DNA of 64,000 nt from Parcubacteria bacterium C7867-007. Lineage in GTDB: Bacteria; Patescibacteriota; Minisyncoccia; Phycocordibacterales; Phycocordibacteraceae. Below the pieces are notes generated by a model. The model was not told the DNA's origin, ran no database searches, and was given only the letters and a program-made list of their open reading frames with translations. Both the position numbers and the translations under genes were made by a program. Shown here in pieces: positions 981 to 54,136 of this stretch. Location of the stretch: the NCBI GenBank assembly GCA_001189195.1, contig LFCQ01000003.1:141645-205644 (forward strand), in the 5' to 3' direction. Position 1 is the stretch's first letter. Every line of letters begins with the position of its first letter.

Positions 981-2228
981 ATGGACCTTGCTCAGGAACT
1001 CACCGCACGCGGCCTCATTGAACACACTTCAGCGGATCTCTCAGAGATTCTTAAGACCAAGCGTACGGTCTATTTGGGTGTAGATCCAAGCGCTGATTCT
1101 ATGCAGGCTGGGAACCTTGTGGTGGTATTGCTGATGAAGCGCCTTGCCGACGCAGGACACAAGATCATCCTTTTGGTGGGTGGTGGCACTGGTATGATTG
1201 GAGATCCTCGTGAGAAGGGGGAACGCGCACTTGCAGATAAGAAGATCGTCGAGCGAAACAAGAAAGCAATTAAGGCACAGATGCAGCGCATCATTGGCAC
1301 AAAAGTAACACTCGTTGATAACGCAGACTGGCTCTTAAAGATTAAACTTGTGGACTTTCTCCGTGACATTGGCAAGCATTTCACGGTGAACGAACTAATT
1401 AAGCGTGACATTATCAAGCGTCGTCTTGAGAATCCAGACGATAGCATTTCATACACAGAATTTGCATACAGCCTCCTTCAAGGCTATGACTACATGCACC
1501 TGAATCAAAAGTATGGTGCTGACCTACAGATTGGTGCATCGGATCAGTGGACTAACATTCTTTCAGGGGTTGAATTGATTCGACGCAAGCTTGGAAAAGA
1601 AGCGTTTGCGGTATGCACTCCTCTCATCACAGATGCAAACGGAAAGAAGTTCGGAAAGTCCGAGGGTAACGCGGTGTGGCTTGATGCACACAAGACATCT
1701 CCGTATGCCTTCTACCAGTTCTGGCTTAATCAGCCAGATGAGGTAGTGGAGCGATACTTGAAGTCATACACCTTCATGCAGGTGATGGAGATTGATGCAC
1801 TATGCGAGCTCCATCGTCGCAATCCAGGACGTCGTGAGGCACAGAAGATGCTTGCGCATCAGGTGACTGAAATAGTACACGGAAAAGATGCAGCACTCCG
1901 CAGTATTGCCGTGTCAGAGGCGCTGTATGGTGAACGCACACTCAGTACACTTTCTAAAGAGGAACAAGCTATGGTTCTAGAGGAGGCACCAAGCCTTACT
2001 ATCTCAACTGCAGATCTCGCATACGGATACACAATCATTGATGCGCTCACCAACAGCAACCTCGTGTCATCCAAGTCTGAAGCGCGACGTCTTATTGAAT
2101 CTAAAGGGGTAACGTTGAACGATGAAAAGGTTGATTCCGTGGAAGCAACGCTGTCATCGGAAAACTTCCAAAATGGTCTTGCCATGTTAAAGCGTGGCAA
2201 ACAGATCTCAATTCTTTCACTCTCATAG
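981..2228 (+). CDS. tyrS: tyrosyl-tRNA synthetase
   Basis: 415 aa. Class I motifs include the GGTGMIGDP TyrRS signature, a KMSKS-like KFGKS, and a C-terminal S4-like domain. Confidence 0.93.
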   Translation: MDLAQELTARGLIEHTSADLSEILKTKRTVYLGVDPSADSMQAGNLVVVLLMKRLADAGHKIILLVGGGTGMIGDPREKGERALADKKIVERNKKAIKAQMQRIIGTKVTLVDNADWLLKIKLVDFLRDIGKHFTVNELIKRDIIKRRLENPDDSISYTEFAYSLLQGYDYMHLNQKYGADLQIGASDQWTNILSGVELIRRKLGKEAFAVCTPLITDANGKKFGKSEGNAVWLDAHKTSPYAFYQFWLNQPDEVVERYLKSYTFMQVMEIDALCELHRRNPGRREAQKMLAHQVTEIVHGKDAALRSIAVSEALYGERTLSTLSKEEQAMVLEEAPSLTISTADLAYGYTIIDALTNSNLVSSKSEARRLIESKGVTLNDEKVDSVEATLSSENFQNGLAMLKRGKQISILSLS

Positions 2229-2249
2229 TCAGGTTTTCTTTATAAAAAT

Positions 2250-2936
2250 TTGATCATCTCATTATGGCTTATTTGTCATAGTGAGTGCGTGACTGCTCTC
2301 ACACTAACTCAACAATGTTCAGCAATTAAACTCTACCAGGGCGGCATGAGTGCACCGATGATTGCTAAACATTTTTTGGTGAGCACTGATGCAATTTATT
2401 ACACGCTTCGACACCACAACATTCCTCGACGTTCTCCATCAATGAATAGTGCAATTTGGTTTGCTGCAAAACCACTTTCATATGAGCTCAAGAAACATTT
2501 AACCTATTCAGAGGAACAATTAAAACTTGCAGCAATAATGCTGTACTGGGCAGAAGGGTACAAAGTGGGAAAGCAAACCTGCGTTGATTTCACCAATTCT
2601 GACCCAGATATGCTAGTCGTATTTCTGAGATTTCTCAGAGAGATTTGTAGAGTAGACAGCTTGAGAATTCGAGCAGCGATGTATTGTTATGAAGATCAAA
2701 ATGTTATTGCACTAACTCAATTCTGGTCTGAACTGTTGTCTATTCCTGAAAATCAGTTCACGAAGCCGTATGTAAAAAAGCAGGTGGCTCCTGGCCGCCA
2801 GGGGCCACGCATGATCCATGGCCTTGTACATATCCGGTATTGTGATAAAAAGTTACTACGACAGATACTGAATTGGATAGATGAGTATCGTGCCGAATGC
2901 GTCGGTGGTAGAGTGGTCAATTACACGACACTGTAA
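2250..2936 (+). CDS. LAGLIDADG-like homing-endonuclease-type protein with N-terminal HTH; 3' end overlaps tRNA-Tyr
   Basis: 228-aa ORF. The N-terminal HTH-like segment is AIKLYQGGMSAPMIAKHFLVSTDAIYYTLRHHNI. The segment LKLAAIMLYWAEGYKVGKQTCVDFTNSDPDMLVVFLRFLREI resembles a LAGLIDADG motif plus the downstream beta/alpha core of single-motif homing endonucleases. The stop codon TAA at 2934-2936 is the UAA inside the tRNA-Tyr anticodon loop (cUGUAAa). Confidence 0.5.
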   Translation: MIISLWLICHSECVTALTLTQQCSAIKLYQGGMSAPMIAKHFLVSTDAIYYTLRHHNIPRRSPSMNSAIWFAAKPLSYELKKHLTYSEEQLKLAAIMLYWAEGYKVGKQTCVDFTNSDPDMLVVFLRFLREICRVDSLRIRAAMYCYEDQNVIALTQFWSELLSIPENQFTKPYVKKQVAPGRQGPRMIHGLVHIRYCDKKLLRQILNWIDEYRAECVGGRVVNYTTL

Positions 2937-2984
2937 ATGTCGCGGCTTCGGCCTACGAAGGTTCGAATCCTTCCCGGCGCACCA
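2899..2984 (+). tRNA. tRNA-Tyr (anticodon GTA), type II with long variable arm, CCA encoded
   Basis: The cloverleaf folds by hand. Acceptor GCGUCGG pairs with CCGGCGC (one G-U). U8 is present. D-stem GUAG pairs with UUAC, and the D-loop has A14 and GG. Anticodon stem CGACA pairs with UGUCG, and the loop CUGUAAA has U33, anticodon GUA and A37. The variable arm is a GGC-UUCG-GCC hairpin. The T-arm GAAGG-UUCGAAU-CCUUC is identical to the E. coli tRNA-Tyr T-arm. Discriminator A is followed by CCA. Confidence 0.9.
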
Positions 2985-2992
2985 AAGTGTAT

Positions 2993-3034
2993 GAAGAATG
3001 GCAGGCCCTAAAGCTTGCCATTCTTCTGTTTTAT
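2993..3034 (+). terminator. rho-independent terminator after tRNA-Tyr
   Basis: Perfect 11-bp stem gaagaatggca/tgccattcttc with a 12-nt loop, followed by tgttttat. Confidence 0.7.
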
Positions 3035-3106
3035 CCTATTATGTCAATACGGCCCGAGGGGTCGTTTTAAGTTACTTTTTGGGGAGAATACCAGGTGGAA
3101 TCAACT

Positions 3107-3670
3107 ATGAAAGGTCCGGTAACGGAAGCCGGCTATCGGCGGCAGGAGTGCCGTGTGAATACGGCGAAGACTATCCTCAACCGGTGCACCGATGAACTCA
3201 CCGGCGACCGCTGCGGGGAAAACTCCACAGGGGAGGGAAAGGCCATCGACCGCGCTTGCGCGGGCACTGAGCGGGATACCGCTCGGGCGAGATGGGAGGC
3301 TGAAGTGAGAACACTGAACAGCATCTCGATCGCTCAGGAACCCACCGCCAACTGCCACGTGTGCACCGGGCATCCGGTGACCATCAAGTGGATCGATCCA
3401 CCGGCCAAGAAAAAGGTTGGGGAGACCGAAACGGTGATCCTGGGTGGCTTCGGCGAGAGCTGGGACAACGTGGACCACGACGGCACCGTGCTGGGCCCTC
3501 CAACACGGAGCTATAATTCGCCGTTCGGTTCGGCTCTGAAGGGAGCTGCTATGGGCGACGAGCCCTACTTCATGGGTCCTGGCCACAATGGGTCTCGACC
3601 TGTCGAGCTCTGTTTCAAGGTTCTTGCGATCGGCGAAACACGCATCGCCGAGCTGCAGGCTGCAGCGTAA
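3107..3670 (+). CDS. hypothetical protein encoded on a GC-rich (~60%) island
   Basis: ATG at 3107 sits 8 nt downstream of AGGTGG; the upstream GTG at 3095 lies inside the RBS. The frame shows strong GC3 periodicity, unlike the flanking genes. The opposite-strand ORF 3101-3694 is Arg/Ser/Leu-rich antisense noise. The protein has 4 Cys in the first 70 aa and an NCHVCTGHP segment. No family recognised. Confidence 0.5.
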   Translation: MKGPVTEAGYRRQECRVNTAKTILNRCTDELTGDRCGENSTGEGKAIDRACAGTERDTARARWEAEVRTLNSISIAQEPTANCHVCTGHPVTIKWIDPPAKKKVGETETVILGGFGESWDNVDHDGTVLGPPTRSYNSPFGSALKGAAMGDEPYFMGPGHNGSRPVELCFKVLAIGETRIAELQAAA

Positions 3671-3689
3671 GCTGCCTGTCCAGAAGGAC

Positions 3690-3728
3690 AACATATGTGC
3701 GCCGCGGATCGTTGGGGTCCGCGGCGTT
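3690..3728 (+). terminator. rho-independent terminator closing the GC-rich island, 37 nt upstream of trpS
   Basis: 9-bp stem cgccgcgga/tccgcggcg with a 9-nt loop, followed by ttctctttttt. Confidence 0.6.
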
Positions 3729-3764
3729 CTCTTTTTTATATTCAGCCTGTGCTATCGTAGGGTC

Positions 3765-4718
3765 ATGAACGCAGACAAGCTTGTACTCCTCTCCGGCATT
3801 AAGCCAACTGGTGAGATTCATATTGGTAACTATTTTGGTGCTATTAAGCAATTCGTTGAACTCCTTAATGATGATTCTCATCAGGGATTTGTATTTATTG
3901 CGGACTACCACGCACTTAATTTCATACAGGATGCTGCAGAGATGAAGCGCCTTACGCGGAATCTCGCACGCACCTATATCGCTTGCGGCCTTGATCCAGA
4001 GAGGGTTGTTCTCTTTAAACAGTCTGATGTTTCAGCACATACGGAGCTTGCGTGGATCTTCGACACCATAACCACCATGCCATATCTCATGCGTGCACAT
4101 GCATTCAAAGACGCGGAGGCAAAGAACAAGGAGATTGTGGTGGGTACCTTTAACTACCCAATGCTCATGGCAGCAGATATTCTTCTCTATAACGCATCAG
4201 TGGTACCTGTGGGACAAGACCAGAAGCAGCATATTGAATACGCACGTGATACTGCAGAGAAGTTCAATCGTATCTTTGGTGAAACATTCCGTCTTCCGGA
4301 ACCACATATTCTTTTAGACGTTGCAGTGGTACCAGGTATCGATGGACGCAAGATGAGCAAGAGCTACGAGAACACTATCCCGCTGTTTGCATCTCGTGAT
4401 GAGATCACTGAGGCAGTTATGGGCATCGTCACTGACTCTAGTGGTGACCGTCCTGAAAACGTATACGCAATCCATCGCCTTATTAAGACCGACGAAGAAC
4501 TTGCGTCGCTGTATGAAGAACACAAGGGCAAGTACAAAGCACTGAAGGAAGCACTCATCGAGGATCTTGATACATTCATTGCGCCAATGCGCGAGCGATT
4601 TGAAGCACTCACTACAGATGCAGAAATAGATGAGATTCTTCACAAAGGAGGTGCCCTTGCGCGTGAGCGTGCTGAGGCTAAGATGGATGAAGTCCGTCGA
4701 GCAATCGGCGTCCGCTAG
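3765..4718 (+). CDS. trpS: tryptophanyl-tRNA synthetase
   Basis: Start taken at MNADKLVLLSGIKPTGEIHIGNYFGA (HIGH-type motif IHIGN), with KMSKS at KMSKSYEN. The 5' in-frame extension back to 3588 overlaps the upstream terminator and GC-rich gene, so I rejected it. Confidence 0.88.
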   Translation: MNADKLVLLSGIKPTGEIHIGNYFGAIKQFVELLNDDSHQGFVFIADYHALNFIQDAAEMKRLTRNLARTYIACGLDPERVVLFKQSDVSAHTELAWIFDTITTMPYLMRAHAFKDAEAKNKEIVVGTFNYPMLMAADILLYNASVVPVGQDQKQHIEYARDTAEKFNRIFGETFRLPEPHILLDVAVVPGIDGRKMSKSYENTIPLFASRDEITEAVMGIVTDSSGDRPENVYAIHRLIKTDEELASLYEEHKGKYKALKEALIEDLDTFIAPMRERFEALTTDAEIDEILHKGGALARERAEAKMDEVRRAIGVR

Positions 4719-4730
4719 AGGAGGTCTTTC

Positions 4731-4934
4731 GTGCCCCAAGTTACATTCACTGGTGAGAATCACTATGGTCAATTGGCCAGGTGGCGCACGTCGATGGCGA
4801 GCCGTTTCGAAGGCTTTGCCATTCTTGAACACAGGAACAAGGTAGGGACGGTTACGGTCGACTACTTCATCCCTGAAGATTCAGCCACCACAGACACCAC
4901 TTGTCCCTGCTGCGGCAGGGGGCCCGGAGCCTAG
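4731..4934 (+). CDS. small hypothetical protein (67 aa) with Cys-rich C-terminus, GTG start
   Basis: GAGGAGG lies 7 nt upstream of GTG at 4731, directly after the trpS stop. GC3-rich frame. The C-terminus is TTDTTCPCCGRGPGA. The stop codon lies in the loop of a downstream hairpin. Confidence 0.45.
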   Translation: MPQVTFTGENHYGQLARWRTSMASRFEGFAILEHRNKVGTVTVDYFIPEDSATTDTTCPCCGRGPGA

Positions 4935-4955
4935 CGGTTCCGGGTCCTACTTTTA
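4923..4955 (+). terminator. putative rho-independent terminator
   Basis: cccgga-(10 nt loop)-tccggg, followed by tcctacttttac. Confidence 0.45.
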
Positions 4956-4974
4956 CATGCTATTTTAGTGATAT

Positions 4975-6306
4975 ATGGAACGAACGCTCATAGGGGAGCT
5001 TAGCAGCAAAGCAGGCGAAACTATCACTATCAACGGATCAGTGGATGTTCGCCGTGATCAGGGCAAGCTCGTATTCTTCGACTTCCGGGACCGCTCAGGC
5101 ACCGTGCAGGGAGTCGTGCTTCCTGGCAATGAGGTTCTTATGGAGATTGCAAAGACCGTTCGCAACGAATTCATCGTGAGTGTTAGCGGTATCGTTAACA
5201 AGCGCCCTGAGAAGAACATCCAAGCTGATAAACAGAACGGAGACATTGAGCTTGAGATTAAGGAGATCGAGGTACTTTCTTCTGCAGACATACTACCCTT
5301 TGAGCTTGATGCGGAACTCAACCTCGACACCTATCTCGACTATCTTCCACTAACTCTTCGTACTAAGCGGGCTCGCGCTATATTCAAGGTGCAGTCTGAG
5401 ATTGCTCGTTCATACCGCGCATTCCTTAACAGCGAAGGGTTTATTGAATTCCAGGCACCAAAACTTATTGGTGATGATGCAGAGGGAAGTGGAGAAGTGT
5501 TTGAGGTTCCGTACTTCTACGGAAAGACAGCACACCTTGCAACAAGCCCGCAGCTCTATAAGCAGATCATGGTGGGTGCGCTCGAGCGCGTATTCAGCAT
5601 CGGCATCGTATTCCGTGCAGAGAAACACAGTACCGCTCGTCACCTGAACGAATACACATCTATGGATGTGGAAATGGGATACATCACCGATCATCGTGAT
5701 GTGATGAAGATGGAGAACCGTCTCATGCAGTATATTGCTGCCGACCTGCAGAAGAACTGCTCTGCAGAATTCACTCTCCTGGGAGCAGAAGTACCCGTGG
5801 TGCCAGACGAGATTCCTTCTATGAAGTTACGCGCGGCACAGGAACTAATCTTTAAAGAAACAGGGAAGGATAATCGTAACGAACCAGATCTTGAGCCTGA
5901 GGATGAACGTTGGCTTTGTGAATGGTCAAAGAAAGTACATGATTCTGATTTCGTATTCGTAACACACTATCCTGTTTCAAAGCGTCCCATGTACACCACG
6001 GAGGACCAGACTGACCCTGGCTTCACCAATGGGTTTGATCTTCTGTTCCGTGGTGTTGAGATCACTACGGGTGGGCAGCGACGTCATGAGTATCAGAATC
6101 TTATAGACGGTATCAAAATGAAAGGCCTTGATCCTGAGAAGTTCTCGTACTACCTTCAAGCCTTCAAGTACGGTATTCCTCCTCATGGGGGATGGGGAAT
6201 GGGCCTTGAGCGCCTCACCGCAAAGTTCCTTGGTCTTGCAAACGTAAAGGAAGCAACGCTATTCCCTCGTGACATCAACCGTATCGACACGCTTCTTTCA
6301 GACTAA
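4975..6306 (+). CDS. aspS: aspartyl-tRNA synthetase, archaeal/eukaryotic-type class IIb (possibly non-discriminating)
   Basis: 443 aa with an N-terminal OB fold. Motif 2 is FRAEKHSTARHLNEYTSMDVEM and motif 3 is GGWGMGLERL. Its length and motifs fit the short AspRS form rather than the long bacterial form. Confidence 0.82.
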   Translation: MERTLIGELSSKAGETITINGSVDVRRDQGKLVFFDFRDRSGTVQGVVLPGNEVLMEIAKTVRNEFIVSVSGIVNKRPEKNIQADKQNGDIELEIKEIEVLSSADILPFELDAELNLDTYLDYLPLTLRTKRARAIFKVQSEIARSYRAFLNSEGFIEFQAPKLIGDDAEGSGEVFEVPYFYGKTAHLATSPQLYKQIMVGALERVFSIGIVFRAEKHSTARHLNEYTSMDVEMGYITDHRDVMKMENRLMQYIAADLQKNCSAEFTLLGAEVPVVPDEIPSMKLRAAQELIFKETGKDNRNEPDLEPEDERWLCEWSKKVHDSDFVFVTHYPVSKRPMYTTEDQTDPGFTNGFDLLFRGVEITTGGQRRHEYQNLIDGIKMKGLDPEKFSYYLQAFKYGIPPHGGWGMGLERLTAKFLGLANVKEATLFPRDINRIDTLLSD

Positions 6307-26028: not shown

Positions 26029-26173
26029 GAAGATGACCAGAATCCCTGGTATGGGCGCCTTTGCTCAACAAAGGCGCCCTCTATCGTCACTTTTGACTTT
26101 CTATAAAAAATCATTATTATAAGTTTCAGTACCAGAGTTCCTATCAACAACATAGACCGAAAGGACATGCTTG

Positions 26174-27622
26174 ATGCACCGCATCATTCCCGATTGGACC
26201 AGATGGGCGGTACCCATACTAGGGATACTTTCCATTCTGGTCTTTGTGCCCTCGCTGATCTACTTCAGCCGGGCAAACGATCACCAGGACTACAGCAAGG
26301 TTCCTGCACTCACCCCAGCACAATACACTGCTGAGGTGAAGGCAATCGTTGCCGCTACATACGCGGCTCCGACTGAGGACCCTGCGGACTACTACCGTAC
26401 GGCGATTCGCGCTCAGAACTTCAACGTTATGGAGGAGCGCTTCCGTCGTGATCACCCTGCCGAATGGCAGAGACTCGCGCACAAGCGTTCCGCCAGCATG
26501 ACGTTCAACGTCGGGCTCTTGATGAATGAGTACGAACAGAAGTTCGGCCATTCAACAATGGTGGATACTGCGGACCGTATGCGTCCGTGGATGAACGAGC
26601 AGATCGGATCGATTTCAGCACCCCCGGACCAAGTCCGGCTGGACAAGGCAGGCTGGTGGTTCGTTCGTGGATACATCATGTGTGTTCTGCTCAGCGTGCT
26701 GTTCTACATGGCGCGTCTCAAGCAGGAAGGCATGCTGATCTGGCCCGAGATGACCACAGGCTTCCTGTTCTTGGCCGCGTTCACTGGCCTTGGCGTCGTC
26801 ATGATCTACCCTCGGAACATCGATCCAATCGTGCAGATCAAGCGGGCCTGGCGATTCATCGCTGGTCTCGCTGCTGGTTCCATCTCGCTTGCGGGAATGG
26901 CTGGCATGGCTAACGCGCGAGAACGTCTGGAAAGCAGCGCGGCCGAGAACGCCAAGGTGTTTATCCTTCCGTTCGTTCCGATGCCTGAGTTCTCGTTCTC
27001 AAGTGGTGTCATGTCGTCAAAGGTGACTGGCAACGGCACCCGCGTCAACGATGGCATCACGTACACCGGTGGTGTGCACGCAGCCTTCGCTGGTGGCGTG
27101 GACTTGGATCTGTCCGGCACCAGGCAAGCTACGGGCAACGCGTCGGATGAGATCGACTACACCATCTCGAAGACGATGAAAGGAAAGGCAGGGTCGGTTA
27201 CGGCCGGCTTCGCCTATTTCGATATCGTCCCGGTGGGCAGAAGCAAGGGAGGCGACATGATCTCCCCCTTCATCAGTCTCGAGCACAAGCTCGGGTACGG
27301 CCTGACGGCCTTCGCGAAGGCGGACGGATACTTCCTAACGCACGGACCTCCAACCAACAATGGCTTCGACGTGATTGCCGGACTCAAGGGAAGCACGCAA
27401 GTGCGCTCTCTGAGGTTCGATCACTCCGTCTCGGCCGTTCTGAGCGACGGTCCGTTCGGACAGTCTGCAGGCACGACCCTGCGCTTCGACGAGGCAATCT
27501 CAGTGCCCGTCACAAAGCGTCTGCGGGCTTCCACCAATTTCAAGCTCTTCGTTCCTATCCAAGGATCGAAAGGTCGAGAAATGGACGTCTCTGGCGGCCT
27601 CGGTCTGAACTACGCGTTCTAA
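26174..27622 (+). CDS. GC-rich (~58%) hypothetical membrane protein with a beta-rich C-terminal domain ending in an OMP-like aromatic residue
   Basis: AAAGGA RBS. N-terminal TM plus three central TM helices. The C-terminal ~230 aa show alternating hydrophobic beta pattern and end in GLGLNYAF. GC3-rich codons. Confidence 0.55.
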   Translation: MHRIIPDWTRWAVPILGILSILVFVPSLIYFSRANDHQDYSKVPALTPAQYTAEVKAIVAATYAAPTEDPADYYRTAIRAQNFNVMEERFRRDHPAEWQRLAHKRSASMTFNVGLLMNEYEQKFGHSTMVDTADRMRPWMNEQIGSISAPPDQVRLDKAGWWFVRGYIMCVLLSVLFYMARLKQEGMLIWPEMTTGFLFLAAFTGLGVVMIYPRNIDPIVQIKRAWRFIAGLAAGSISLAGMAGMANARERLESSAAENAKVFILPFVPMPEFSFSSGVMSSKVTGNGTRVNDGITYTGGVHAAFAGGVDLDLSGTRQATGNASDEIDYTISKTMKGKAGSVTAGFAYFDIVPVGRSKGGDMISPFISLEHKLGYGLTAFAKADGYFLTHGPPTNNGFDVIAGLKGSTQVRSLRFDHSVSAVLSDGPFGQSAGTTLRFDEAISVPVTKRLRASTNFKLFVPIQGSKGREMDVSGGLGLNYAF

Positions 27623-30421: not shown

Positions 30422-30465
30422 AAGACCCCTGTCTCAATACGAGACAGGGGTCTTGACTCTTTGTC
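30422..30465 (+). terminator. terminator hairpin after rpmA
   Basis: 14-bp stem aagacccctgtctc/gagacaggggtctt with loop aatac, and a weak T tract. Confidence 0.6.
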
Positions 30466-30545
30466 AAGAATGTGATAATCTCCTGCCAGAACCCGGAATG
30501 TGCGAATTCCGTCAGTGGTTCTTTGCAAACCAAAATAGGTGTCTA

Positions 30546-31754
30546 ATGCAAAGTGTCCGAAACTGGTGGACGCTAGCTTTCAGCGTCTTCACCCTCATCC
30601 TGATGCTAAGCCTTCCCGGCTTGGCAGAAGCCAAAGATCTCGGTCCAAACGGCCTCAGGGCCGCCTGCACCACCGACCTGCTCAAGCACGTCGGCATGAA
30701 TAACGAGGAGGCCAGACGCCTTCCCGTTGGATTCAAGGTGAGCTACATGAACCGGGAGTTCAAGCTCACCAAGAGTCCGCCGAAGTCCCTCTGGGGCGTC
30801 TGTGAGATCCTCGTCAAAGACGGGGTCTACACCAACGCGAACGTCTTGCATAGCACTGCACCGGCGAAGCCTCCGATTCCGGAAGCGAAGCCTGTGCCTG
30901 CTCCCAAGCCGCCCGTGGCCGCAACGCCGCCGGCACCTGAAGCTGCTCCTGTGGCGCCTTCTCCGCCGAAAGCCGAAACGCCCGTCGCTGAGCCGCCCAA
31001 AGCAGCAAAAGCGCCGGAACCGACGGCTGACACGCCGCCTGTATACGGATCGCCCACCATCGTCGACAAGATGTGGTTCGCGACCCGTGACTTCTTCGGT
31101 GGACTGAACGATTGGCGGAAGCAACATCCCGTCATCGCATCGTCCATCGGAATACTGATCATTCTGATTCTGATCGGTCTCTTCTTCTTCATAAAATGGC
31201 GGGGCGAAGGTTCGGCTGAAACTGATGAGGAAGATGAAGATGAGGTGGAGCAGACTCACGATGAGAACGCTCCTGACTACGTCGACTACGAAACCATACT
31301 CCCGATTGCCGCAGCTGAAGAAGCTGCACTCGAACAACCGCCGATCCCGCACTACATGGTGCTCTCGGACGACGAGTTCGAGAGACAAGCCGTGGCTGCA
31401 GGTTTCGGTCCCAAGGCATCCGAAACAACCCAGAAGCGCTATCGCGCAGGGCTCGCTGTGATCGGTTTCCGTCCGGACAAGGAGGAAGCCCAACGACGAG
31501 GAAAGCTCGTCGACTCGCGCAGCGTGGAAGAGGAGTTCGATTTCCAGGACGCTAACGACAATGACGAAGTCACCACCGAAGCTCCTTCGATCGAACCCTT
31601 GCCTGATCTACCCCCTCTCACCGATCAAGAGCGGGCGGCGATCGGCGAAGACCTTGCTGCTGCCAGAATGATCGTCAACGAACATAAGGCCGCAACTCGC
31701 GGTACCGGTGTTCCGGAACCGTTTTCCGACAAGCTGGCCGGCAAGCCCATCTGA
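30546..31754 (+). CDS. GC-rich (~60%) single-pass membrane protein with a Pro/Ala-rich linker and an acidic C-terminal tail
   Basis: Start at MQSVRNWWTLAFSVFTLILMLSLPGLAEA (signal peptide). A PAPKPP/PEA-rich linker, TM helix VIASSIGILIILILIGLFFFIKW, then a D/E-rich tail. Confidence 0.55.
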   Translation: MQSVRNWWTLAFSVFTLILMLSLPGLAEAKDLGPNGLRAACTTDLLKHVGMNNEEARRLPVGFKVSYMNREFKLTKSPPKSLWGVCEILVKDGVYTNANVLHSTAPAKPPIPEAKPVPAPKPPVAATPPAPEAAPVAPSPPKAETPVAEPPKAAKAPEPTADTPPVYGSPTIVDKMWFATRDFFGGLNDWRKQHPVIASSIGILIILILIGLFFFIKWRGEGSAETDEEDEDEVEQTHDENAPDYVDYETILPIAAAEEAALEQPPIPHYMVLSDDEFERQAVAAGFGPKASETTQKRYRAGLAVIGFRPDKEEAQRRGKLVDSRSVEEEFDFQDANDNDEVTTEAPSIEPLPDLPPLTDQERAAIGEDLAAARMIVNEHKAATRGTGVPEPFSDKLAGKPI

Positions 31755-43703: not shown

Positions 43704-45578
43704 ATGAAACTCATCGCAATCTTAGTGATACTCTTCTCCCTGTTCAATGTGGAGGTGAGCTACGCGAAGGACAAGCCGATCGGTGGCCTCTGTGGAGGTT
43801 CGTTTGTTGGCTCCAACACCTGCGTATGGAATGAAGACACTCACGAGTGGACCGAAACGTACGTGGGCTGGGACAACTGGGAATGGCAAGCTATCTCCGA
43901 TCAGCCTGAACGAGCGGACACCATCCGCCGGATGCATCTTCCCCGGCAGGTGCCGGTCGAGAAGAAATACTCGGTCAGCCTGAACACGGAAGCGTGCCTG
44001 AAGCCGGAGTATCAGCTCCTGCTTAGCGCTGCGGTTCTGCTACCTTCGAATCGAAAACCAATCACGGCTTCGCGTCGTGTGGTGATCATAAACGTTGAAG
44101 GTGGAGATTGGCCTGAAGAATCTCGCATCTGGCCGCACCTCGGTATCAACTACGTGGGCACAGTCGCGAAGCAAGAAGGATACGAGGTTGTTCTGTACGA
44201 TGAACTCATTCAAGGGCGCAAGCCACTGAAGGAGATTGTTCGTCCGGGAGACATCGTTGGCCTGAGCCTTGTGACCACCGGCATCGAGCGCGGCGTTATC
44301 GTCGCACAAGAAGCCAAGGTGCTCGGCGCCTGCTATGTGATCGCTGGAAATGACTCCGCAATGTTCCGTGCCAGACAGCTCCTTGAGCTACCTGGTCGGC
44401 CCATTGATGCCGTCTTCACCAGCAACAGTGTCGTCACCATCCGGGAGTTCTTCCGGAATGCCGACGCAGTGATCGCAGATTCAATGCAGATCGAACAAGT
44501 GGCAACAGCGCCTGAACAGGTACCATACGTTTCCAACGAGCATGACGGAGTTGCGCTCGAACGGAAAGCATACACCGCAGAAGACTTCTTCTTGGTCCCT
44601 GATCTCTCGCTCTTCAGCGACGAGTACTGGGAACTCGTTCGCGCTGCGTATCGTTCGCAGTTCGGACACAAGCACCAAGACTCTGCTAACGTTCACAATG
44701 CCATCGCACTTCTCGCGCAAGGCTGTGGACGAGCAGGTATGGGAGACATCTGTGACTACTGCACCATCCGCCACGTGGCGAATGTGGTTCAACCCTCGCC
44801 TGGGTATCTTGAGGAAACTCTCGCTACATACCGGGCACACGGCGTGAACACGTTCTTCAATGTGACAGACTCGGCCTTTGAGATGGGAGTGCTCGCAAAA
44901 CAGCTCGAAGAAGCTGGTCCTGTGGATACACTCATCATCTACGGTCGGGCGCAGGCTATCGCGCAGCGTCCTGATCTTCTTGAACGCTGGAAGAGTTGTG
45001 TGAGCGAACGACTGCTCATCAACTGCGGTATGGACTCAGGAGATGAACGTATCCTGCAAACCGGCATTCACAAGTCCGGAAGCAAGGTTGGGTCTCGTCT
45101 CCAGGAAAACTATAGGACTCTCGCTAATATTAAGGCGGCGGGACCTAAGGTTCATCTGCATTTCTCGGTGATCTTCGGTTCTCCCGGAGAGACCCATGAG
45201 TCGTGCGAAGCCACACTGCAGTTTGTACAGCATGCTATCGACACACTGGGTGAACAACTCGATGTCGTTGAGGGCGATGTCTTCTGGGTTAACTTCGGAG
45301 CACCGTGCAGCGAAATCTTCACGAACTACGAAGCGACACAGAAGCGTGCTGCACTTGCTGGGAAAACTATCTCCCAGGATGAGTGGCAACAGTGCTTTGG
45401 TCGTCACGCAGACGAACTTGTCGTGCCGGAGGAGTCCCAACAAGCTTGGTATGCCTTCTTCACGAACATCACCATCGAAGATGCGTGGGCATACAACGCT
45501 CAAGTTCGTGAGATGCTGACGCAAGTTCCTGGACATATCACGGGCCGTGAATATGCGTTCAGACCACCAACGGTGTGA
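43704..45578 (+). CDS. B12-binding-domain radical SAM-like protein (class B family) with an N-terminal signal-peptide-like segment and an atypical Cys motif
   Basis: GAGGGG RBS. N-terminus MKLIAILVILFSLFNVEVSYA. B12-binding-like Rossmann segment VVIINVEGGDWPEESRIWPHLGINYVGTVAKQEGYEVVLYD. Cys triad AQGCGRAGMGDICDYC (CX9CX2C rather than CX3CX2C). Class-B radical SAM downstream motifs INCGMDSGDERILQTGIHKSGS and AAGPKVHLHFSVIFGSPGETHESCEATLQF. GC about 55%. Confidence 0.6.
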   Translation: MKLIAILVILFSLFNVEVSYAKDKPIGGLCGGSFVGSNTCVWNEDTHEWTETYVGWDNWEWQAISDQPERADTIRRMHLPRQVPVEKKYSVSLNTEACLKPEYQLLLSAAVLLPSNRKPITASRRVVIINVEGGDWPEESRIWPHLGINYVGTVAKQEGYEVVLYDELIQGRKPLKEIVRPGDIVGLSLVTTGIERGVIVAQEAKVLGACYVIAGNDSAMFRARQLLELPGRPIDAVFTSNSVVTIREFFRNADAVIADSMQIEQVATAPEQVPYVSNEHDGVALERKAYTAEDFFLVPDLSLFSDEYWELVRAAYRSQFGHKHQDSANVHNAIALLAQGCGRAGMGDICDYCTIRHVANVVQPSPGYLEETLATYRAHGVNTFFNVTDSAFEMGVLAKQLEEAGPVDTLIIYGRAQAIAQRPDLLERWKSCVSERLLINCGMDSGDERILQTGIHKSGSKVGSRLQENYRTLANIKAAGPKVHLHFSVIFGSPGETHESCEATLQFVQHAIDTLGEQLDVVEGDVFWVNFGAPCSEIFTNYEATQKRAALAGKTISQDEWQQCFGRHADELVVPEESQQAWYAFFTNITIEDAWAYNAQVREMLTQVPGHITGREYAFRPPTV

Positions 45579-53662: not shown

Positions 53663-54136
53663 TTATGCAACCTTCTCTACGTGATAGGTCTGCTTTCCGT
53701 TTGGAGTTTCAAAGGTGAAGCTATCTCCCTTCTTCTTCCCCATTAGTGCAGCACCGAGTGGTGAAACGTGTGAGAGCTTGTGTGCGCGCATGTCTGCTTC
53801 TTCTGAGCCAACGATCATGTACTCGTGCATATCAGAACCACCATCTTTCTTGATAACAACTGATGAGCCGAATCCAACAACATCCTTCTTCTTGCCGTCA
53901 GTTACGATCTTTGCACGCTTAACAAGTTCCTCAAGCTTTCGGATACGTTCTTCAGTTGCAGCCTGAAGATCTCGTGCCTCCTGGTATTCAGCGTTCTCAG
54001 AGAGATCACCAAGCGATCGAGCATACTCAAGATTCTTTGCTATTTCGGTACGACGAACCGTCTTAAGGTTTTCTAGTTCCTTAACCATTTCATCGAACTT
54101 CTCCTGGCTCACCATTGTTTCTAATTCTGTCGTCAT
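53663..54136 (-). CDS. greA: transcription elongation factor GreA
   Basis: GDLSENAEYQEA motif in the coiled-coil N-domain, plus the FKBP-like C-domain. Confidence 0.9.
   Translation of the reverse strand: MTTELETMVSQEKFDEMVKELENLKTVRRTEIAKNLEYARSLGDLSENAEYQEARDLQAATEERIRKLEELVKRAKIVTDGKKKDVVGFGSSVVIKKDGGSDMHEYMIVGSEEADMRAHKLSHVSPLGAALMGKKKGDSFTFETPNGKQTYHVEKVA

Follow-up and report, generated by a model that had tools for sequence, protein, structure and literature searches.

A probable, fast-evolving Gre-factor paralogue with a non-canonical tip at a variable tRNA-Tyr/trpS site of a Parcubacteria genome

The metagenome-assembled genome of Parcubacteria bacterium C7867-007 comprises 702 kb with 48% guanine plus cytosine (GC) and originates from oxic Hanford groundwater (PMC4508563). 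In a stretch of 64 kb of this genome (hereafter the window), an open reading frame (ORF) at positions 3107-3670 of the plus strand, located between tRNA-Tyr and trpS, encodes a protein of 187 aa that is identical to AB202_00840 and annotated as "hypothetical protein". Here we argue that this gene, which we call the Gre-like gene, is probably a lineage-restricted and very fast-evolving paralogue of the GreA/GreB/Gfh1 factors. Its product displays the two-domain Gre architecture, i.e. a full-length antiparallel coiled coil followed by a C-terminal domain of PF01272 type, and constitutes a new, lineage-restricted variant of the Gre family with a non-canonical tip. The window also contains a canonical greA (53663-54136, minus strand), which possesses the GDLSENAEY tip, matches both Gre models (PF01272, 3e-23; PF03449, 3e-22) and has a GC content at third codon positions (GC3) of 0.44, so that 3107-3670 represents an additional paralogue. 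In small genomes GreA is said to be frequently the sole factor of the secondary channel (PMC4598747). That a 0.7-Mb, symbiont-type genome keeps a second, heavily modified Gre paralogue with dedicated expression signals suggests a hitherto unrecognised layer of RNA polymerase (RNAP) regulation in bacteria of the Candidate Phyla Radiation (CPR), and our literature search found no publication on Gre factors in this group.

Searches with the single sequence give little indication of this relationship. A word-indexed protein search returned the query itself as sole match, a phmmer search of the Protein Data Bank (PDB) produced one chance fimbrial match and nothing meaningful, and a single-sequence AlphaFold model reached a predicted local confidence (pLDDT) of 32.6. 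An earlier note, made from the letters of this DNA only, had likewise stated that the protein resembled nothing recognisable. This statement has to be abandoned, as an exhaustive phmmer search of 1.84 billion representatives recovered 14 relatives of 141-210 aa with 28-38% identity and E-values from 2e-17 to 8e-5. The alignment of the query and these relatives (15 members, hereafter the family alignment) is characterised by the motifs WTxxGxxR, R-G-G-x-x-S-x-x-E-G-K-x-x-D, ETxILGGxGExD, S(C)xSPLGKALxGxxVGD and YxVxIxxI. A profile built from it matches Gfh1 (4e-9), GreA (3e-7) and GreB (4e-6, over positions 6-166) in the PDB and, weakly, Rnk (3bmb, E = 0.034). PF01272 is matched by all 15 members (best E = 5e-12) and the NCBIfam GreA/GreB models by 11-14 of them. 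Searched against the large database, the same profile also recovers canonical GreA proteins, and hhalign aligns the family with these canonical proteins at a probability of 99.1% (E = 1e-18) over 158 co-linear columns beginning at residue 1. Some of the homologues have already been annotated automatically as GreA/GreB family proteins. The present gene is listed as hypothetical only because its rapid evolution defeats searches with a single sequence. PADLOC and PHROGs revealed no consistent sign of a defence or phage function, each giving one weak match in one of the 15 members.

The predicted structure leads to the same assignment. When supplied with the family alignment, AlphaFold 2 returned a model with a pLDDT of 87.8 and a predicted template-modelling (TM) score of 0.74, in which two helices (residues 7-32 and 43-72) are followed by a beta-rich domain. 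The helices form an N-terminal antiparallel coiled coil (residues 7-72; 3125-3322, plus strand), which according to the model, Foldseek and hhalign has the full GreA length of about 75 residues that spans the secondary channel. The C-terminal globular domain (residues 84-176; 3356-3634, plus strand) is homologous to PF01272, the presumed RNAP-docking domain, and retains the conserved motifs ETxILGGxGExD and SPxGxAL.G..xGD; its mean pairwise identity within the family is 39%, against 22% in the N-terminal coiled-coil domain. In the PDB, Foldseek ranks GreA (9a7t_B) and RNAP-bound Gfh1 (3aoi_X) highest, each at a target-normalised TM score of 0.76; GreB and GreA (1grj) come next, and 177-187 columns are aligned with GreA, Gfh1 and GreB. 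Free Gfh1, with its flipped C-terminal domain, superposes poorly (target-normalised TM score 0.38-0.43). Gfh1 undergoes a pH-dependent domain flip; unlike its free form, the Gre-like protein is predicted in a GreA-like conformation.

The tip of the coiled coil (residues 33-48, GDRCGENSTGEGKAID; 3203-3250, plus strand) is non-canonical. The signature GDLSENxEY, which is invariant in the aligned canonical GreA proteins and present in the genome's own GreA, is absent from the Gre-like family and replaced by a tip with S40, E43 and D48. In the hhalign alignment the first canonical tip acid corresponds to S40, a position occupied by Ser in nine of the 15 members and variable in the others. The second canonical acid (E44 of GreA) corresponds to E43, with an acidic residue in 13/15, and D48 is aligned with the next Glu after an insertion of two residues, this position being acidic throughout (15/15).

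Factors of the secondary channel bind RNAP with their C-terminal domain and insert the coiled coil into the channel; a pair of acidic residues at its tip is important for function. Judging from the homology of the docking domain and the superposition on 3aoi_X, the Gre-like protein probably docks on RNAP as a Gre factor does: its C-terminal domain would bind at the entrance of the secondary channel, and its coiled coil would extend toward the active site. There it could compete with GreA, or modulate or inhibit catalysis, in the manner of Gfh1 and Rv3788. Such a competitor or modulator appears more likely to us than a standard transcript-cleavage factor, since the family has not kept the first catalytic Asp. 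Gfh1 of Thermus/Deinococcus and Rv3788 of Mycobacterium, although homologous to Gre factors, do not cleave transcripts but inhibit RNAP (PMC4598747). The Gre-like protein resembles them as a paralogue with an altered acidic tip beside a canonical GreA, a setting in which competitors and inhibitors are found (PMC4598747); Gfh1 is moreover its best sequence match in the PDB and, in the channel-bound form, its best structural match. However, the two are no orthologues (about 23% identity), belong to unrelated phyla and differ in tip sequence, and the likeness to Gfh1-type inhibition is circumstantial.

Among the known systems nearest to the Gre-like protein are the canonical factors GreA and GreB (PF03449 + PF01272), which stimulate endonucleolytic cleavage of transcripts in backtracked complexes. 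Common features are the size, the two domains, the N-terminal motif (L/W)TxxG, the length of the coiled coil and, in the C-terminal domain, the shared SPLGKAL.G..VGD and the correspondence of IVG..EAD in GreA with ILGGxGExD in the Gre-like family. The differences comprise the lack of GDLSENxEY, the Ser or variable residue at the first catalytic Asp, the two-residue insertion, an N-terminal domain that escapes PF03449, the extreme divergence among close relatives, a short C-terminal extension usually ending in AA, and the occurrence as an extra copy beside canonical greA. Rnk is homologous in the C-terminal domain only (3bmb, as above; NF004548 matches 10 of the 15 members), and its coiled coil is markedly shorter (PMC4598747), whereas that of the Gre-like protein is of full length. 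Like DksA and TraR, the present protein has a coiled coil predicted to reach into the secondary channel, and it contains several Cys. Proteins of the DksA/TraR type carry a C-terminal domain with a four-Cys zinc finger. The C-terminal fold of the Gre-like protein is a different one, and no DksA/TraR match was obtained in Pfam or the PDB. The four N-terminal Cys pointed out in the earlier note and the CHVC motif do exist, but they are not conserved in the family; zinc binding by the Cys cluster or by CHVC was ruled out on this ground.

The C-terminal extension ends in Ala-Ala-Ala (3659-3667, plus strand). Ten of the 15 aligned members, and in addition the homologues at the related loci L001, L007, L013, L017 and L023, terminate in -AA-COOH, the preceding tail being variable (loci of related genomes are numbered with the prefix L, and W denotes the window's own locus or allele). 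An Ala-Ala-COOH end is reminiscent of the C-terminal degron of ssrA type, to which ClpXP responds. By this analogy the tail may render the Gre-like protein short-lived, a degron role that is speculative.

The gene is a self-contained expression unit with its own promoter, conserved 5' hairpin leader, strong Shine-Dalgarno (SD) sequence and terminator. It follows tRNA-Tyr (GTA anticodon; 2899-2984, plus strand; ARAGORN; Rfam 57.5 bits), whose terminator hairpin (2993-3026, plus strand; -23.6 kcal/mol) consists of 14-bp arms followed by TGTTTTAT. A sigma-70-type promoter (3015-3042, plus strand; 10 of 12 matches in the scan) comprises TTGCCA (3015-3020), a 16-nt spacer and TATTAT (3037-3042), so that the -35 box lies within the 3' arm of the tRNA terminator hairpin. 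A hairpin at this position is likewise kept in L003, L010, L012 and in genomes that lack any gene between tRNA-Tyr and trpS. A nucleotide alignment of promoter and leader of W with L003, L010 and L012 revealed the same layout, TTGCyn/16-nt spacer/TAyTAT, in all of them. At or near the predicted transcript start a hairpin, ACGGCCC-GAG-GGGTCGT (3049-3065, plus strand), is kept in W, L003 and L010 and might play a role in mRNA stability or attenuation. Further downstream the leader contains GGGGAGAA (3081-3088, plus strand), to which GGGAGAA in L010 and GGGCAAGA in L003 correspond, and an SD sequence, AGGTGG (3093-3098, plus strand), 8 nt upstream of the ATG at 3107. An intrinsic terminator (3699-3737, plus strand; -25.6 kcal/mol) concludes the unit; its perfect 9-bp arms (3700-3708/3718-3726) belong to a GC-rich stem that extends to 12 pairs (3699-3727), followed by the T-run TCTCTTTTTT. 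The description in the earlier note of a single plus-strand gene with its own ribosome-binding site and terminator, bounded upstream by the tRNA terminator, is thus borne out and extended by the promoter.

The right-hand neighbour, trpS (3765-4718, plus strand; PF00579, E = 8e-58), is leaderless, with an extended -10 box, TGCTATCGT (3750-3758, plus strand), 6 nt before its ATG. Boxes of the type TGGTATCGT occupy the equivalent position in L014, L025, L026, L036, L055, L057 and L077, and an extended -10 element TGnTATCGT placed 6-8 nt before the ATG is kept in at least seven related genomes. A strong SD sequence such as that of the Gre-like gene is rare in the window (3/60 ORFs). Any SD-like 4-mer occurs in just 11/60, and a -10-like TAnnnT box lies within 18 nt of the start codon in 23/60, which indicates leaderless mRNAs; the genome appears to initiate translation mostly in a leaderless or SD-less manner. 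Our literature search found no publication describing leaderless initiation in Parcubacteria.

To place the gene in its genomic context we collected related loci with TrpS as anchor from 80 species-representative genomes (TrpS 64-79% identical), of which 38 have tRNA-Tyr upstream of trpS. In these 38 genomes the tRNA and trpS form the conserved left and right anchors of a variable slot, bounded on the right by the trpS -10 box, and nearly all of them also have tyrS just 5' of the tRNA. The distance from tRNA-Tyr to trpS ranges from 25 to 3768 bp. Ten of the slots are empty (defined as less than 300 bp; 25-273 bp observed) and hold just the tRNA terminator and the trpS promoter, and about 25 contain cargo that does not match the Gre profiles. 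The overall gene order is tyrS, tRNA-Tyr, Gre-like gene, zero to three small genes, trpS, aspS, scpA, scpB, peptidase S11, mraY and ftsW, which L001, L003 and L007 follow as far as their contigs extend; L008 is the only contig with a different gene context. The Gre-like gene is immediately preceded by tRNA-Tyr in L003, L010, L011 and L012 and lies immediately 5' of trpS in L002, L010, L011 and L012. The slots of L013 and L023 also contain Gre-like genes, and others were found in L017, L018 and L035, whose flanks showed no tRNA. In a neighbour-joining tree of TrpS the window's clade is resolved as (L023,(W,(L012,(L003,(L010,L013))))), and all six members carry the Gre-like gene at the tRNA-Tyr/trpS site. 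These observations support the view of an accessory cassette, complete in itself, at a tRNA-flanked site of variable content, and in the window's lineage the gene is inherited at a fixed site together with conserved regulatory DNA.

Several loci display further genes of possible Gre affinity. A minigene of 81-89 aa located 3' of the Gre-like gene in L003 (8700-8969), L007 (792-1043) and L008 (2940-3185) resembles a stand-alone Gre C-terminal domain, the copies of L003 and L008 being 46% identical, and the slot of L027 contains a C-terminal-domain-like ORF only. In L001 a second ORF of 176 aa (1213-1743) lies 3' of the Gre-like gene; by translation alone it has a Gre-like look and ends in IAA, and no profile hidden Markov model matched it. 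W possesses neither a minigene nor a second Gre-like ORF downstream of its Gre-like gene.

The composition of the Gre-like gene is as conspicuous as its sequence. The earlier note had reported an abrupt rise in GC and a coding frame at 3107-3670 with a strong third-position signal, and both were confirmed: the region 3040-3745 has 59.1% GC and the ORF 61.3%, against 48.7% in the whole window, which corresponds to z = 3.7 among all 564-bp windows (mean 0.487, standard deviation 0.034; the maximum of 0.619 begins at 3161), and GC at the three codon positions amounts to 0.61, 0.53 and 0.71, respectively. GC3 is uniform along the ORF (0.72-0.74), while the first 50 codons of trpS have 0.38. Only the ORF (0.613) and the 3' untranslated region with the terminator (0.582) show the excess; in the promoter stretch (0.375) and the leader (0.483) GC resembles that of the host. 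Among the 12 genomes in which the gene was compared with its locus, it is GC-richer than the rest of the locus in 11, by +0.03 to +0.13 and with a GC3 of 0.57-0.755, and the excess is greatest in the hosts of lowest GC (W +0.128, L023 +0.102). Unrelated cargo of the same slot is usually GC-poorer than the host. As the excess recurs in 11 of the 12 genomes, the composition is a trait of the gene family, and we infer that it is a property of the family's coding sequence and not the footprint of a recent distant import.

Nor is the region, which the earlier note called a single-gene island, the only GC-rich one in the window. Codon usage of the Gre-like gene correlates less well with that of the host core genes (r = 0.43) than with that of the pooled other GC3-rich genes of the window (r = 0.76), so that the GC3 anomaly concerns a class of genes in this genome and not a single island. 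These other genes encode a 483-aa membrane protein (26171-27622, plus strand; GC3 0.71) and a 433-aa Pro/Ala-rich, membrane-anchored protein (30453-31754, plus strand; GC3 0.64), neither with a Pfam match, and a B12-binding/radical-SAM protein (43704-45578, plus strand; GC3 0.60). Translational selection is unlikely as the cause of the high GC3, because ribosomal protein L9 and canonical greA have values of 0.43-0.44. Possible sources are biased conversion associated with recombination or import from GC-richer relatives.

Several points weigh against the interpretation of the gene as a lineage-restricted Gre paralogue that has been inherited with its site. On its own the query scores below threshold against the Pfam model of the GreA/GreB C-terminal domain (14.3 bits, cut-off 26.9) and against NCBIfam GreA (E = 0.028), and PF03449, the N-terminal Pfam model, is matched by none of the family members. 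The confidence of the structural model is lowest at the tip (pLDDT about 68 for residues 31-40), which, together with the two-residue indel, renders the equivalence of S40 with D41 of GreA uncertain, and the tip loop of W contains two further acids, D34 and E38, that could substitute. Outside the window's TrpS clade the distribution of the gene is patchy, and Gre-like similarity does not follow that of the adjacent TrpS (Mantel rho 0.145, p 0.24, with identities near saturation), so that purely vertical descent is not demonstrated.

The decoupling from TrpS also bears on an alternative that concerns the origin of the composition alone and leaves the function of the protein as proposed above. 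It holds that the allele of W was received from a GC-richer relative within the Parcubacteria by homologous recombination via tRNA-Tyr and the 5' end of trpS, or that repeated recombination with GC-biased gene conversion maintains the high GC of the locus. Pairwise identity of the Gre-like proteins is 13-46%, against 67-88% for the adjacent TrpS, and L003, L010 and L013 provide an example of the decoupling, with TrpS 87-88% and Gre-like proteins 19-26% identical. The slot is a hotspot of gain and loss, the tRNA does not vary in its 3' half between genomes, and GC3 changes abruptly at the ends of the ORF; that the excess is largest in the lowest-GC hosts also speaks for this alternative. However, no two alleles of the compared loci are more than 47% identical, and the one nearest to that of W reaches 38% in the phmmer search, or 44% over a local alignment of 122 residues, so that neither a donor nor a recent event can be shown. 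In GC content the cassette's leader and promoter resemble the host, other cargo in the slot is GC-poorer than its hosts, and the missing correlation with TrpS is weak evidence because similarities at 20-30% identity are near saturation. The pattern is compatible both with very fast divergence that is not clock-like and with an exchange of deeply diverged alleles via the conserved flanks, and we regard exchange among related Parcubacteria as a possible, but not a probable, contribution.

A second alternative concerns the function. The Gre-like protein could be a second genuine transcript-cleavage factor, in a division of labour like that with GreB, in which other acids of the enlarged tip loop are catalytic. 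The coiled coil is of full length, E43 is aligned with E44 of GreA, positions 43 and 48 are acidic in nearly all or all members, the loop of W offers the two additional acids mentioned above, and the predicted orientation of the domains resembles that of active GreA and RNAP-bound Gfh1 rather than free Gfh1 (0.76 versus 0.38-0.43). Against this stand the absence of the otherwise invariant GDLSENxEY, the Ser or variable residue in place of the first catalytic Asp and the poor conservation of the N-terminal domain relative to the C-terminal one. Gfh1 furthermore illustrates that an acidic tip is no guarantee of cleavage activity (PMC4598747). We therefore consider a cleavage factor rather doubtful and favour the competitor or modulator.

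A more far-reaching scenario, which we think unlikely and put forward as speculation, would unite these features. The gene might encode a hypervariable secondary-channel factor under diversifying selection, of which diverged alleles with non-canonical tip and ssrA-like -AA tail are shuffled among related Parcubacteria by way of the conserved flanks as a promoter-to-terminator cassette, with GC-biased conversion during recombination leading to the GC3 excess. Its role would then lie in conflict or in partner-specific interaction, e.g. with phage- or host-derived RNAP effectors, and not in housekeeping proofreading. While the family assignment as such is ordinary, the combination of hypervariability, GC3 excess, SD-led expression in a mostly leaderless genome and the -AA tail is noteworthy. 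The extreme divergence, the decoupling from trpS and the lasting GC3 excess make this locus a useful test bed for weighing recombination and biased conversion against selection in uncultured bacteria.

From the composition and the tRNA-adjacent position the earlier note had suggested horizontal transfer from a donor of high GC. A foreign island taken up recently from a distant donor of this kind and integrated beside the tRNA would account for the excess of GC and GC3, for codon usage closer to the GC3-rich genes of the window than to the host core, for the empty sites in some relatives and for an SD-led translation signal that is atypical of the host. Indeed, the site agrees with tRNA-linked islands in its position, in being occupied, empty or otherwise filled among relatives, and in its deviant composition. 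The flanking tRNA and the variable slot of the 38 genomes thus confirm part of the suggestion, as do the empty slots in ten relatives. The family is, however, found at the same site and in the same orientation throughout the host's clade (six of six) and in a number of further Parcubacteria, its promoter and leader (including GGGAGAA) are conserved with relatives, and the GC excess extends to 11/12 genomes. Close family members that were recovered all stand in synteny with Parcubacteria-type neighbours, and the searches found nothing closer elsewhere. Only one ORF, and hence no integrase, lies between tRNA-Tyr and trpS in W, and no att-like or tRNA-derived direct repeat surrounds the region, the longest repeats being chance matches of 12 nt; a classical integrase-mediated integrative island was ruled out for these reasons. 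Unlike tRNA-linked islands, the cassette consists of a single gene of 0.7 kb without integrase or att duplication, is fixed in the host's clade, and carries cargo that exceeds the host in GC instead of being AT-richer. Recent import from a distant source is accordingly highly improbable. The locus may serve as a caution: a sharp anomaly of GC and GC3 beside a tRNA, which resembled a classic case of a foreign island, is in fact inherited as a trait of a gene family.

The reading of the region as a structured RNA, or of the antisense ORF at 3101-3694 (197 codons) as a real gene, is effectively refuted: although that ORF is open, and full-length antisense frames are open at seven of nine homologous loci, the plus frame has significant full-length Gre homology and a confident fold, promoter, SD sequence and terminator all lie on the plus strand, and Rfam detected no RNA family except tRNA over 2000-5000, which ruled out a structured RNA at 3040-3745. 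The antisense ORF is the codon-aligned antisense frame of the Gre-like gene and is open because the latter contains no TTA, CTA or TCA codons. The absence of these A-ending Leu and Ser codons has P ~0.26 under the codon usage of the other GC3-rich genes of the window, and the frame is closed in L003 and L012; the antisense ORF was rejected as a gene on both grounds, and its dismissal as noise in the earlier note was justified.

Two further kinds of gene were observed in the vicinity. A regulator of the MucR/Ros family is located near the Gre-like gene in L001 (2-211, upstream) and L008 (3292-3693, downstream); among the window ORFs between tyrS and trpS no MucR/Ros gene was identified. In W the space between tyrS and tRNA-Tyr is occupied by AB202_00830 (2250-2936, plus strand; GC 0.42), which has an N-terminal helix-turn-helix motif; apart from this, comparison with Pfam, the PDB and PHROG gave no assignment. 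More than 380 homologues with 56-67% identity are spread across Parcubacteria and Kaiserbacteria. A gene of this type lies between tyrS and tRNA-Tyr in W, L013, L020, L021, L031 and L064 and is absent from L003 and many others. Its 3' end enters the tRNA gene in every case in which the contig contains both ends. In W the ORF overlaps tRNA-Tyr (2899-2984), and its stop codon TAA (2934-2936) overlaps the anticodon, being composed of the TA of GTA and the next A; AB202_00830 may represent a selfish gene of homing type.

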